From: Candidatus Dormiibacterota bacterium | Lineage (GTDB): Bacteria > Chloroflexota > Dormibacteria > CF-121 | Reading direction: 5' to 3' | NCBI GenBank assembly: GCA_036403615.1 | Contig: DASWQQ010000173.1 | Span: 1-30,701, forward strand | DNA: 30,701 nucleotides | Part shown: piece by piece, positions 9,274 through 11,127 of the stretch | How positions within the stretch are numbered: position 1 is the first letter of the stretch | Layout: every line of letters begins with the position of its first letter | Position numbers and translations under genes: made by a program | Notes under the pieces: model-generated | What the model saw: the letters and a program-made list of their open reading frames with translations, nothing else | Told to the model about the DNA's origin: nothing | Database searches by the model: none

Positions 9274-11127
9274 GTGCCCGACTGGTCATACCATCCGCTG
9301 CTGAAACCGCTGACGGCCTGGCTTTCGGCCGACGCCCGCCGTACGCTCGCACTTCGGGGTATGCAAGCCCTGGGCACTATCCCCGGTGGCCCGCTTCTCG
9401 TGCACCTGCTCGGCCGGATGACTCCTGACGGAGCGATCGCGGGGCGGGTGTACGGAAAGTGGCTGGCGAGCCCGATCGGACTCGCCGGTGGCGTCGACCC
9501 TGATGGCCTAGCCATCGGCGCCTTCGGCCGACTCGGCTTCGGCTTCGTGGAGGACGGCCCTTACGCCGTGGGTGCCGCTCCTGGGCGCCCAGTCTTGCCG
9601 GTGCCGCTGCTGGCCGGGGTGGAATCTGATCGGCTCGCGAAACGGCTCCGCGCCCGGCCTGTGGGATTGTCTGTTTGGCTGCGGATTGCGGTTGCGGAAC
9701 GCGATGCGCACTGCGTCTCTGGGGCAGAGCGCCTCCTGAACGCTGTTGGCGACGCGGTCGACGTCGTTTGCGTCACCATTACCGACGGACCTTCGCATCC
9801 CGAATGCGTGCAGCGCGACGAACTGTGGCGCTGCCTGGTCGGCCTCATCCATCAACACGGAATTGCGACCGTGCTGGCCGATTTCCCGATCGGCGCCCCG
9901 CAGTCGGCCATCGAGACCGCATTCGAGGCTGGCGTCGCCGGCGTGGTCCTCCGGGCGCCCGCCGCCGGCGGTCTGCCGCTCGACACGGCGGCGGCTATCC
10001 GCCGGACTCGTCAGCAGACGCCGACCGCATCGCTGGTCGTGGCAGCCTGCGGTGCGCGATCTCCCAGGGAGATCCGCGATGCCTTCCGGGCTGGGGCGGG
10101 CCTTGTGGCCCTCGATCTGGGCGTCATCGAGTCTGGACCCGGCATTGCAAAACGGGGCAATGAGGCCCTGCCGGACCGGCGCCCCGAGCAGCCGCCAGCG
10201 CTTACGAGACCGTTGTACGGCCACGCCTGGCCATGGCTGCTGCTCCTTGGGGTCGGAATGTTCGTCGCCGGCGCGGTCGTGTTCTGGGTCGGGCAGACCC
10301 GCGTCGTCCTTGGTTATGACGAGGCGTTTCTCGGAATCGGGCGTGATGCCTTTCCGCTGGTCAACCCGAGGCTGCTGGGTTTCATGCGACACGACCGCAT
10401 CACGCTCGCCGGCACGCTGATGTCGATTGGACTCCTCTACGCCGCCCTGGCATGGTTCGGAGTGCGCCAGGGTCAGCGTTGGGCACGGGGCGCTCTGCTC
10501 GGATCCGGCGTCGTCGGCTTCGCGAGCCTGTTCCTGTTCCTCGGCTTCCGCTACGTCGACCCACTCCACGTGGTGCTCAGTGCCGGCCTCTTCCCCCCAT
10601 TTCTCATTGGCATGGCCCTACCGATGCGACAACACCGCCGACCGAGCCTGGATCTGGACAACGATTCGAGCTGGCGCCGCGGACTGGTCGGCCAGTTGCT
10701 CTTTATCGGACTCGGCGCCGGTTTGGTCGGCGCCGGGCTCACCATCGCGACGGTCGGCGTGACCAGAGTCTTCGTCTTTGCTGACCTGCAGTTCCTGGAA
10801 ACAACGTCCGCGGCAATCAGCGCCGCAAATGGTCACCTGCTGCCCCTGATCGCCCACGACCGGGCGGGCTTCGGTGGCGCGCTCGCCTCTGATGGCCTTG
10901 CGGTCCTGCTCCTGTCCCTCTGGGGCTTCCGCCGTGGGGAGCGATGGGTTTGGTGGACGCTATGCCTTGCCGGGTTGAGCGGTCTCGCCTGCGGCGTCTA
11001 CGCCCATATCGCCGTCGGTTACCTCGAGATCGGCCACCTCCTGCCGCTCCTGGTCTCGGCCCTCGTGTTTTCCATGGCGCTCGCGCTGAGCGGGCCATAC
11101 ATGCTCGCCGGAAACCGGAATCGCTGA
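9274..11127 (+). CDS. Dihydroorotate-dehydrogenase-like barrel (degenerate) fused to a duplicated multi-TM membrane domain
   Basis: SPIGLAGGVD and LGFGFVE resemble class 2 DHODH motifs, as does the C-terminal AGAGLV...GP. Two hydrophobic repeats each carry HDR. Start set at GTG 9274 (MPDWSYH). Confidence 0.75.
   Translation: MPDWSYHPLLKPLTAWLSADARRTLALRGMQALGTIPGGPLLVHLLGRMTPDGAIAGRVYGKWLASPIGLAGGVDPDGLAIGAFGRLGFGFVEDGPYAVGAAPGRPVLPVPLLAGVESDRLAKRLRARPVGLSVWLRIAVAERDAHCVSGAERLLNAVGDAVDVVCVTITDGPSHPECVQRDELWRCLVGLIHQHGIATVLADFPIGAPQSAIETAFEAGVAGVVLRAPAAGGLPLDTAAAIRRTRQQTPTASLVVAACGARSPREIRDAFRAGAGLVALDLGVIESGPGIAKRGNEALPDRRPEQPPALTRPLYGHAWPWLLLLGVGMFVAGAVVFWVGQTRVVLGYDEAFLGIGRDAFPLVNPRLLGFMRHDRITLAGTLMSIGLLYAALAWFGVRQGQRWARGALLGSGVVGFASLFLFLGFRYVDPLHVVLSAGLFPPFLIGMALPMRQHRRPSLDLDNDSSWRRGLVGQLLFIGLGAGLVGAGLTIATVGVTRVFVFADLQFLETTSAAISAANGHLLPLIAHDRAGFGGALASDGLAVLLLSLWGFRRGERWVWWTLCLAGLSGLACGVYAHIAVGYLEIGHLLPLLVSALVFSMALALSGPYMLAGNRNR

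Follow-up and report, generated by a model that had tools for sequence, protein, structure and literature searches.

A soil-bacterial membrane protein family couples a degenerate class-2 dihydroorotate dehydrogenase barrel to a duplicated eight-helix domain with a near-invariant His/Asp cluster

A gene on contig DASWQQ010000173.1 of a Candidatus Dormiibacterota bacterium (GCA_036403615.1), contained in the 30,701-nt stretch of DNA that we analysed as our window, encodes a protein that, judged from its catalytic positions, cannot be a dihydroorotate dehydrogenase (DHODH) and represents a catalytically dead copy of that enzyme fused to eight transmembrane (TM) helices. We favor, with a probability of roughly 0.4, a two-part, non-DHODH membrane protein in which a putative metal centre within the eight-helix domain would face outward and be capped by the pseudo-enzyme. 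The eight-helix domain itself is best read as an uncharacterised, new module.

Results

Gene and reading frame

The open reading frame (Table 1) translates to 617 amino acids free of stops. We assigned the start to the GTG at position 9274 because homologues nearly all open with M-P-D-W-[ST]-Y, and the same N-terminus rules out a longer reading frame beginning at a GTG at 9145. A scan for promoters and terminators gave no signal beyond shuffled expectation. The positions reported in the first-pass annotation, which had been made from the letters alone, proved right: the His residues of the two HDR triplets, at nucleotides 10390 and 10855, are H373 and H528, and the later His residues, at 10567 and 11035, are H432 and H588, lying 59 and 60 residues downstream of the HDR His. 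Likewise, its DHODH-like segments (PIGLAGGVD, GFGFVE and AGAGLV...GP) and its membrane-domain motifs (W-F-G-V-R-Q-G-Q-R-W, W-G-F-R-R-G-E-R-W, Y-V-D-P-L-H and Y-L-E-I-G-H) were all found in the translation.

Table 1 Features of the gene and its protein. Positions are those of the window; fractions give the family sequences that retain each residue, in the order named
Feature	Position	Strand	Description or conservation
Whole gene	9274..11127	+	617 codons plus stop, GTG start
Pseudo-DHODH domain, residues 1-310	9274..10203	+	Class-2 type (beta/alpha)8 barrel with N-terminal alpha1-alpha2 extension; FMN, substrate and catalytic motifs lost
Best-conserved part of N-terminal domain, residues 1-100	9274..9573	+	PDWSY, alpha1-alpha2, G-x-G..E-x-G-P (beta1/beta2); from conservation by segment and alignment to canonical DHODH
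Conserved beta7-beta8 and C-terminal helix, residues 256-300	10039..10173	+	AGAxLV...GPGxAKRxNEA
Membrane repeat 1, residues 311-462	10204..10659	+	TM1, two short outer helices, TM2-TM4
Y348-D349-E350, outer loop after TM1	10315..10323	+	Y 410/413, D 406/413
H373-D374-R375, outer start of TM2	10390..10398	+	412/413, 412/413, 413/413
R398-x-G-x-R-W403, cytoplasmic TM2-TM3 loop	10465..10482	+	Identified by conservation
Y427-x-D-P-x-H432, outer TM3-TM4 turn	10552..10569	+	H 406/413
Membrane repeat 2, residues 463-617	10660..11124	+	TM5, two short outer helices, TM6-TM8
D504, outer loop after TM5	10783..10785	+	413/413
H528-D529-R530, outer start of TM6	10855..10863	+	412/413, 412/413, 413/413
R553-R-G-E-R-W558, cytoplasmic TM6-TM7 loop	10930..10947	+	Identified by conservation
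H578...Y583...H588, outer TM7-TM8 turn	11005..11037	+	411/413, 410/413, 409/413

The N-terminal domain

By both profile and fold, residues 1-310 are a true homologue of class-2 DHODH, the quinone-dependent, membrane-associated type. A family profile searched against PDB sequences retrieved solved class-2 DHODHs (E 8.5e-30, positions 7-299), and a Foldseek search with the predicted model, in which this domain contains eight strand/helix units, returned human and M. tuberculosis DHODH (approximately E 1e-10, TM 0.6-0.7). The homology to PyrD (PF01180/TIGR01036; PDB 8OFW, 1F76, 1D3G) spans the N-terminal 300 residues, including the N-terminal helices specific to class 2, and the two share the motifs G-x-G...E-x-G-P and GA-x-LV...GPG. 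The DHODH likeness first recognized by eye is thus real but degenerate: the Pfam DHO_dh (PF01180) score of 14.5 bits falls short of the 27-bit cut-off, and matches to the NCBIfam quinone-DHODH models are confined to residues 6-106 (best 52.6 bits, cut-off 267).

Unlike class-2 DHODH, the domain lacks the FMN-binding Lys and Lys217, the Asn residues of the substrate site, the catalytic Ser loop and NTT. An alignment that includes two canonical DHODHs shows that the Lys of AAGxDK, together with NRxGFNN, N-x-S-S-P-N, KIAPD (which holds the second FMN Lys) and NTT, is missing both here and in the other aligned members; the FMN-Lys motif position (A-A-G-x-D-K) reads G-G-V-D-P-D in this protein, the positions of the catalytic Ser loop and substrate Asn read T-I-T-D-G-P, and those of K-I-A-P-D and N-T-T, both variable across the family, read T-V-L-A-D and R-A-P. 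Pattern searches for AAGxDK, G-F-N-N and N-x-S-S-P-N found none among approximately 330 family sequences, while the same three patterns did match the canonical DHODHs P0087 and P0088 that served as controls in the same set.

The losses are accompanied by an uneven erosion of the barrel. Its centre, which unlike that of class-2 DHODH is variable or deleted, has a mean top-residue frequency of 0.34, with 1 of 155 columns at 90% or above; its two ends reach 0.54-0.68, comparable to the membrane repeats. In the Actinobacterial (Actinomycetota) forms, of approximately 500 amino acids, the barrel centre is entirely missing. In class-2 DHODH, the quinone tunnel that faces the membrane is made by the region equivalent to residues 1-100. 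Apparent stand-alone forms of the membrane domain, of approximately 300 amino acids, were also seen in the family (e.g., P0282 on a 3.0-Mb contig and P0274 on a 54-kb contig).

The membrane domain

The fused eight-TM domain, which class-2 DHODH does not have, is an internal duplication, as the first-pass annotation had claimed: a BLASTP comparison of residues 311-462 with 463-617 gave 33% identity over 97 amino acids (E 6e-11). Predicted models are confident for the whole protein (pLDDT 92.2, pTM 0.91) as well as for the membrane domain (pLDDT 94.7, pTM 0.92). Thirteen key polar residues are each retained in 98-100% of 413 distinct sequences drawn from at least six phyla, and the same is true of the 335 sequences that had been gathered by HMM and not by motif pattern.

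The four equivalently placed His residues are essentially invariant (each present in 406-412 of 413 sequences), and they form part of a larger invariant polar set that comprises two HD doublets, H578, D349, D504, Y348 and Y583. H578, the fifth conserved His and located where TM7 ends, is without counterpart in repeat 1. The intramembrane placement first suggested for the His pairs was not borne out: rather than lying deep in the membrane, they occupy the first turns of TM2, TM4, TM6 and TM8, adjoined by Arg, Asp or Glu, on the face opposite the barrel, and in the predicted models they lie 2-6 residues inside helices that start on the acidic side. Loops on the barrel side carry on average 7.6 K+R and 3.8 D+E, and those opposite the barrel 3.8 K+R and 8.0 D+E. 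By this charge bias, the dead barrel is likely cytoplasmic and the His/Asp cluster likely lies at the outer membrane interface. In its composition, the cluster resembles a metal or catalytic site more than it does a buried bis-His heme pocket.

Against Pfam, NCBIfam and PDB sequences, neither 43 members nor a profile recovered a relative of the membrane domain, even at E 10; a 12-bit match to RNA polymerase beta was dismissed as chance. Clusters from the ESM Atlas either had no name or consisted of this same DHO_dh fusion, and no named cluster remained after PF01180 had been excluded.

Fold comparison

Among the structural matches listed, the model of the membrane domain appears to have a sole clear fold relative, chain O of 8XQW, from the Chlamydomonas Ycf2/Orf2971-FtsHi chloroplast import motor (Z 17.4, rmsd 3.7 A, 246 of 307 residues aligned over both repeats, 13% identity; Foldseek probability 0.98, TM 0.50). 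The next match after it scored Z 8.5, and chain O of 8XKS scored Z 8.2. The family profile did not find 8XQW chain O among all PDB sequences at E 10; given this result and the 13% identity, a common function cannot be assumed. The chain is, like our membrane domain, uncharacterised, and it differs from the present protein in being eukaryotic, residing in a large complex and lacking a DHODH-like domain. We take chain O of both entries to be Moc45, as we infer from the preprint on 8XKS. Moc45 is described without a cofactor, with no metal or heme reported, and its authors saw no similarity to known folds (bioRxiv 10.1101/2024.09.02.610899).

Distribution and gene neighbourhood

The gene occurs in at least 460 species-representative genomes, across hundreds of soil bacteria, and its cultured carriers include Paenibacillus, Brevibacillus, Cohnella, Mycobacterium/Mycolicibacterium and Nocardia. 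Databases name its products "dihydroorotate dehydrogenase" or "hypothetical protein"; as the first-pass annotation had stated, Bacillota homologues are labelled simply dihydroorotate dehydrogenase (e.g., Brevibacillus WP_390294099). A literature search for a pseudo-DHODH joined to a membrane domain found no paper and, in keeping with the same annotation, no functional study.

Gene neighbourhood, also put forward there as a check, yielded no conserved neighbours: all-against-all clustering of open reading frames over 80 loci gave no non-self cluster in more than 8 loci, and the clusters found in up to 8 loci reflect genus-level synteny only. Flanking genes often lie on the opposite strand, and same-strand neighbours are mutually unrelated (decarboxylase, NUDIX, phosphodiesterase, amidohydrolase).

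Discussion

We propose that the working part of the protein would be the C-terminal eight-helix domain, whose two tandem four-helix repeats, set in the same orientation, would assemble the near-invariant polar cluster at the outer membrane-water interface. The cluster would draw together the His-Asp-Arg triplets at the starts of TM2 and TM6, the His at the starts of TM4 and TM8, the fifth His at the end of TM7, two Tyr, and Asp residues from both outer loops. Such an arrangement could form an outward-facing metal centre of the HD-doublet type, mono- or binuclear, whose target, bound or acted upon, would be located at the outer leaflet or on the cell-envelope side. In HD-domain phosphohydrolases, helix-borne HD doublets are well established as metal ligands, and the metal sites of HD domains (H...HD...D) likewise combine invariant His-Asp doublets on helices with extra His and Asp; HD domains are nevertheless soluble and have no fold or sequence relation to this membrane domain, and the likeness would be one of motif chemistry.

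The cytoplasmic N-terminal domain would, under the same proposal, be a remnant of class-2 DHODH that no longer binds FMN or substrate and retains only the parts that in genuine class-2 DHODHs face the membrane: the free N-terminus with PDWSY, alpha1-alpha2, beta1-beta2 and the final beta-alpha unit. The domain is probably a fixed cap over the conserved cytoplasmic R-x-G-x-R-W loops, possibly with a lipid or quinone tail still bound in it. A metal is the best reading of the putative cofactor, with heme less likely. Counting against a metal are the absence of a conserved gene neighbour or partner domain that would hint at a substrate, and a fold relative that is itself uncharacterised and, as Moc45, reported without metal or heme.

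The same fold relative lends itself to an unlikely, cofactor-free alternative, in which the protein would be a scaffold, a transporter or channel, or else a protein that handles lipids or quinones, with its His, Asp and Arg residues forming salt bridges between the repeats, a path for protons or ions, or a gating network, and with the barrel tunnel binding a lipid or quinone tail. Chain O of 8XQW is an auxiliary membrane subunit of the import motor, the subunit that it probably matches, Moc45, is described without a cofactor, the conserved barrel parts are those that build the quinone tunnel in class-2 DHODH, and a weaker fold likeness extends to ABCC TMD0 bundles (Z 8-9). However, five His and four Asp kept at 98-100% across phyla go beyond what is usual for structural contacts, the polar cluster sits on a single face whereas most transporters have it mid-membrane, and the kinship with 8XQW chain O is one of low identity and no profile match.

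Similarly unlikely, in our estimate, is a heme-b module resembling CtaA or cytochrome b, in which each four-helix repeat would ligate one heme b through its TM2/TM4 (TM6/TM8) His pair and the protein would act in membrane redox or heme handling. The placement of the His on the diagonal helices TM2/TM4 and TM6/TM8 also fits bis-His heme, and each HDR His is followed on that face by a conserved Gly at i+7, seven residues further into the membrane; Arg and Tyr nearby could hold propionates. Moreover, the His are invariant, placed at equal depth on alternate helices of a 2x4 repeat with the spacing given above, and the organism is aerobic and makes heme A, with its own CtaA found in the genome. 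CtaA of B. subtilis carries His on TM2, TM4, TM6 and TM8 of two four-helix repeats, near the outer face. CtaA/COX15 (PF02628) and the present family thus agree in having eight TM helices as two four-helix repeats with His on the same helices, and both have long first and third outer loops; they differ in the HD doublets and fifth His found here, and no sequence or profile similarity connects them. Kinship with CtaA/COX15, which the His pattern had suggested, drew no support from Pfam or hhalign: 43 members gave no match to COX15-CtaA or any other heme family at E 10, and hhalign returned a probability of 0.3% against a 24-sequence CtaA alignment (from which L092 of genome G038 was left out) and 0.1% against a single CtaA sequence. 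Nor does CtaA appear among the fold matches listed (Foldseek, VIA-align), an absence from a list that is compatible with a shared fold. The His are, furthermore, interfacial and charge-flanked and not buried. Two putative hemes would lie at one depth and would therefore not allow electron transfer across the membrane, and since the cytoplasmic domain has no redox cofactor site remaining, the flavin-to-heme redox chain implied by the idea of a redox module using a flavin barrel is unlikely.

Finally, the idea of a working DHODH, or of a flavin oxidoreductase akin to it, that has an atypical active site and uses the membrane domain as its anchor is close to refuted and very improbable: database annotation of the Bacillota homologues, long forms above the Pfam DHO_dh cut-off (Brevibacillus, 63 bits) and their retained phosphate-binding-like motifs (G-G and Q-L-H-S-G) speak for it, but the known FMN- and substrate-binding residues and the catalytic Ser loop are gone throughout the family, Actinomycetota dispense with the barrel centre, this protein scores far under every curated cut-off, and the genome already has a canonical class 1B pyrD with pyrK. 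The latter genes lie on another contig in a carB-pyrK-pyrD-pyrE cluster, where pyrD scores 396 bits against a cut-off of 269. The absent catalytic motifs and this canonical pyrD/pyrK likewise lead us to reject an ordinary or variant DHODH; with the motifs lost and a complete pyrK-pyrD-pyrE elsewhere in the genome, the suggestion that the barrel is dead or repurposed and not a pyrimidine-biosynthesis enzyme is upheld.

Returning to the outward-facing metal centre under a pseudo-enzyme cap, we also consider a bolder and rather doubtful form of it. The eight-helix domain could represent a new class of membrane enzyme or receptor that faces outward and works with a metal (or heme). It would have arisen through duplication of a four-helix unit, would share an ancient fold with the import-motor subunit, and would stay joined permanently to the dead class-2 DHODH, whose quinone/lipid tunnel would have survived to feed or sense a membrane ligand. 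If true, this would be a case of a pseudo-enzyme recruited as the lipid-facing adaptor of a new catalytic membrane module.

As the protein cannot be a DHODH, any metabolic reconstruction in which it is counted as pyrD is in error. Its membrane domain combines the lack of any Pfam, NCBIfam or PDB-sequence relative with an extremely rigid conservation of its His/Asp cluster, which points to an undiscovered cofactor site or activity that common soil bacteria would have on the outside of their cytoplasmic membrane. The family is also a clear example of a metabolic enzyme that has lost catalysis and survives as a domain reduced to its membrane-docking elements, the barrel having eroded stepwise in various phyla. 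The fold match to the chloroplast subunit, for its part, provides a first relative for both proteins, and a tractable bacterial model could help explain the import-motor subunit.

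A degenerate class-2 DHODH fused to a duplicated membrane domain

On translation, the family gene forms a single open frame of 617 codons, for which the upstream-most start of the listed ORF, GTG 9145, was ruled out in favor of GTG 9274 because this start yields (M)PDWSY and almost all homologues open with M-P-D-W-[ST]-Y. The coordinates and motifs reported in the first-pass annotation were all correct on re-checking, and the internal duplication claimed for the C-terminal half is real: residues 311–462 (TM1–TM4) and 463–617 (TM5–TM8) share 33% identity over 97 residues (E 6e-11), both carrying W-x-x-x-R-x-G-x-R-W and Y-x4-H.

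Taken alone, the protein scores under every curated DHODH threshold (Pfam DHO_dh, 14.5 bits vs 27; NCBIfam quinone-DHODH models, 52.6 bits vs 267, over residues 6–106 only). A 34-member family profile, however, matched solved class-2 DHODHs at E 8.5e-30 over positions 7–299, including the class-2-specific N-terminal helices, and Foldseek searches with the AlphaFold model (pLDDT 92.2, pTM 0.91) returned human, rat, M. tuberculosis and H. pylori DHODH (~E 1e-10, TM 0.6–0.7 on target). Upon alignment with P0087 and P0088, two canonical DHODHs that these searches had also picked up, the Lys of A-A-G-x-D-K, N-R-x-G-F-N-N, the catalytic N-x-S-S-P-N loop, K-I-A-P-D and N-T-T were all gone from the family; pattern searches for the first three recovered P0087 and P0088 and 0 of ~330 family sequences. 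The proposal of a dead barrel lacking the FMN Lys, substrate and catalytic motifs is thereby upheld, and the protein is a pseudo-enzyme fusion.

It is the membrane domain, together with those barrel ends that face the membrane, that is under constraint. Residues 1–100 (PDWSY, helices alpha1–alpha2, and beta1–beta2 with G-x-G..E-x-G-P) and 256–300 (GA-x-LV...GPG-x-x-KR-x-NEA) show mean top-residue frequencies of 0.54–0.68, equal to the membrane repeats, and the barrel center (residues 101–255) is poorly kept (mean 0.34; 1 of 155 columns at ≥90%). This center is missing entirely from ~500-aa forms, those with names being Actinomycetota, and some Dormibacterota-like forms have 50–130 residues deleted. 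Long Bacillota forms retain G-G and Q-L-H-S-G, which we take to be the FMN-phosphate loops of real DHODH, and exceed the Pfam DHO_dh cut-off (63 bits), hence their DHODH label in databases. In class-2 DHODH structures, the N-terminal helices and last beta-alpha unit are membrane-facing and form the walls of the quinone tunnel; the family retains just these elements, which may still hold lipid or quinone.

Conserved His/Asp cluster of the membrane domain

Modeled alone (pLDDT 94.7, pTM 0.92), the membrane domain is built of eight long helices; the TM1–TM2 and TM5–TM6 loops each add a pair of short ones. Conservation was counted over 413 distinct membrane-domain sequences, a count open to bias from 80 genome loci that came from HDR-containing patterns; 335 HMM-only sequences gave the same picture. 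The four histidines described as equivalently placed (H373, H432, H528 and H588) are conserved, as are the further residues tabulated.

Coordinates of features and conservation of membrane-domain residues
Feature	Position	Strand	Kept (of 413)	Remark
DUF3237 protein	8635-9075	-		146 aa; 25.4 bits, barely above cut-off
Family gene	9274-11127	+
Y348			410
D349			406
H-D-R, repeat 1	nt 10390 (H373)	+	H373 412; D374 412; R375 413	position checked on translation
Later His, repeat 1	nt 10567 (H432)	+	406	59 residues downstream of H373
D504			413
H-D-R, repeat 2	nt 10855 (H528)	+	H528 412; D529 412; R530 413	position checked on translation
H578			411
Y583			410
Later His, repeat 2	nt 11035 (H588)	+	409	60 residues downstream of H528
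195-aa ORF	11177-11764	+		starts 50 nt past family gene
SpoIID-domain protein	11761-13857	-		698 aa
Small proteins, other genomes of the phylum	L004:1321-1854; L005:1342-1839	-		177 and 165 aa
COX15-CtaA match, this genome	L006:535-2328 (G000 contig C241)	-		597-aa frame

The domain was oriented by the positive-inside rule. Loops on the DHODH side average 7.6 K+R and 3.8 D+E, compared with 3.8 and 8.0 on the opposite side; the dead barrel, which carries no signal peptide, is thus predicted to be cytoplasmic, which would place the His/Asp cluster on the outer face. Each His lies 2–6 residues into a helix beginning on that face, with charged residues alongside (R-H-D-R, D-P-x-H, A-H-D-R, E-x-G-H), so that these residues are interfacial rather than deep in the bilayer, contrary to their initial description as intramembrane. 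The nearly invariant R-x-G-x-R-W cytoplasmic loops of both repeats would face the barrel.

Relatives of the membrane domain

Pfam yielded no match to this domain, whether searched with either repeat or with 43 diverse family members and with the limit relaxed to E 10. NCBIfam gave no match outside the DHODH part, and a family profile matched no PDB sequence over the membrane domain. ESM Atlas held only unnamed or same-fusion clusters, the latter of ~500 aa (commonest in Bacillota; PF01180 in 63% of members) and ~503 aa (commonest in Actinomycetota), along with apparently stand-alone clusters of 281–341 aa. Foldseek against PDB found nothing for this domain at E <0.001, and the top exhaustive VIA-align scores (ABCC2 TMD0, Z 9.2; 8XKS chain O, Z 8.2) are within helical-bundle noise.

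Two small four-helix proteins of the same phylum (L004 and L005) weakly match one repeat (E ~4e-4). They share a similar L-A-W-F-G-L-R / R-R-G-E-R-W-A-W-W cytoplasmic loop, lack HDR and have no Pfam match, and are possible unduplicated relatives of the repeat.

Candidate functions

The most likely reading, at a probability of roughly 0.4, is that the outer-face cluster forms a mono- or binuclear metal center. Two helix-borne His-Asp doublets, three further His and two loop Asp would make up the site, and we prefer it to a buried heme pocket because this set is pseudo-symmetric and exposed at the interface. The protein would then be an outward-facing metallo-enzyme or metal-/ligand-binding module, with the dead barrel capping it on the cytoplasmic side or acting as an adaptor that binds lipid.

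A scaffold, channel or lipid handler without a cofactor, such as the one structural outlier, a chloroplast fold-mate, might be, is rather unlikely. When the Foldseek top 1000 were realigned, 8XQW chain O reached Z 17.4 (rmsd 3.7 Å; 246 of 307 residues, spanning both repeats; next match Z 8.5). 8XQW and 8XKS are structures of the Chlamydomonas Ycf2/Orf2971-FtsHi chloroplast import motor, and we infer that their chain O is Moc45, described in the 8XKS preprint as a partly built, peripheral integral membrane subunit with at least 7 TM helices, resembling no known fold and assigned no function (bioRxiv 10.1101/2024.09.02.610899). At 13% sequence identity and undetectable HMM similarity, the likeness is one of shared fold, not shown homology, and is silent on function.

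Bis-His heme b in each repeat, which the first-pass annotation had offered alongside metal, is unlikely. In heme A synthase (B. subtilis CtaA), TM2, TM4, TM6 and TM8 of a 2x4 bundle carry His close to the outer side, and the first and third outer loops are long; the membrane domain shares all of this, and the analogy keeps heme binding as a rival; the interfacial cluster and its H-D doublets nevertheless fit metal better. CtaA membership itself is unsupported, since hhalign gave probabilities of 0.1% against the genome's own CtaA and 0.3% against a 24-sequence same-phylum CtaA alignment, and CtaA is absent among the fold matches listed. The unpublished genome G038 underlies none of these conclusions. 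The genome's COX15-CtaA frame, at roughly double the normal length for CtaA, may represent a fusion of CtaA, perhaps to CtaB; similar frames (612–698 aa) occur in several genomes of the phylum.

A working DHODH is extremely improbable, and the claim that this is not the pyrimidine-biosynthesis enzyme agrees with the source assembly (2.05 Mb, 332 contigs, 73% complete), whose one strong DHO_dh match (250 bits) lies on a different contig, in a carB-pyrK-pyrD-pyrE cluster where a class 1B pyrD (396 bits vs cut-off 269) adjoins the pyrK electron-transfer subunit gene. Overall, the initial observation was confirmed and its interpretation partly supported.

Gene neighborhood and distribution

The suggested neighborhood analysis, run on the fetched loci, found no neighbor conserved above genus level, and in the loci inspected flanking genes are frequently on the opposite strand. 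Upstream, a 198-nt spacer in which no sigma-70-like promoter was found separates the family gene from the divergent DUF3237 gene, with clpC beyond; of the window's neighbors, clpC alone recurs in a close relative (L009). The downstream 195-aa ORF encodes a small membrane protein whose N-terminal zinc-ribbon-like motif (C-x2-C...C-x2-C) is followed by a linker rich in Pro and Ala and by TM helices at the C-terminus; it has no Pfam match and no counterpart in the related loci examined. The SpoIID gene beyond extends over the stop codon of the + strand ORF before it, its domain (97 bits) lying only near residues 484–570 after a long N-terminal region without a match.

Scanning all 1.84 billion cluster representatives with HMMER gave 744 matches at E ≤0.001 (213 at ≤1e-30), most of 600–680 aa with the membrane domain C-terminal, and at least 460 loci of species-representative genomes encode a relative. 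These include Paenibacillus, Brevibacillus, Cohnella, Cytobacillus, Mycobacterium/Mycolicibacterium, Nocardia and Kutzneria, together with Planctomycetota, Acidobacteriota, Obscuribacterales/Vampirovibrionales, Verrucomicrobiia and Chloroflexi-labelled MAGs; MAGs labelled Candidatus Dormibacteraeota or Chloroflexi supply the nearest homologues. Distribution is patchy: 2 of 201 genomes sampled from the window's phylum, this one included, have a full match, and two genomes of its own genus, 91% and 94% complete, have none. An MPDW[ST]Y pseudo-DHODH precedes the membrane domain in 80 of 80 fetched loci. The gene is split or frameshifted in a few MAG loci; separate MPDW... N-terminal and C-terminal ORFs occur in L010, L011, L023, L031, L055 and L063, mostly MAGs (L055 is Paenibacillus). 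Frameshifts, misassembly or pseudogene formation could underlie such splits, and could also account for some ~300-aa "stand-alone" database entries.

RefSeq names the Brevibacillus cluster (82 members) 'dihydroorotate dehydrogenase', matching the Bacillota annotation mentioned in the first pass, and uses 'hypothetical protein' in Mycobacterium, Kutzneria and Cytobacillus. No characterised system comes close to the core membrane domain; its apparent novelty rests on searches that detected no relatives and on a single fold match, to a protein just as uncharacterised, not on demonstrated activity. The family is widespread, mis-annotated and functionally uncharacterised.
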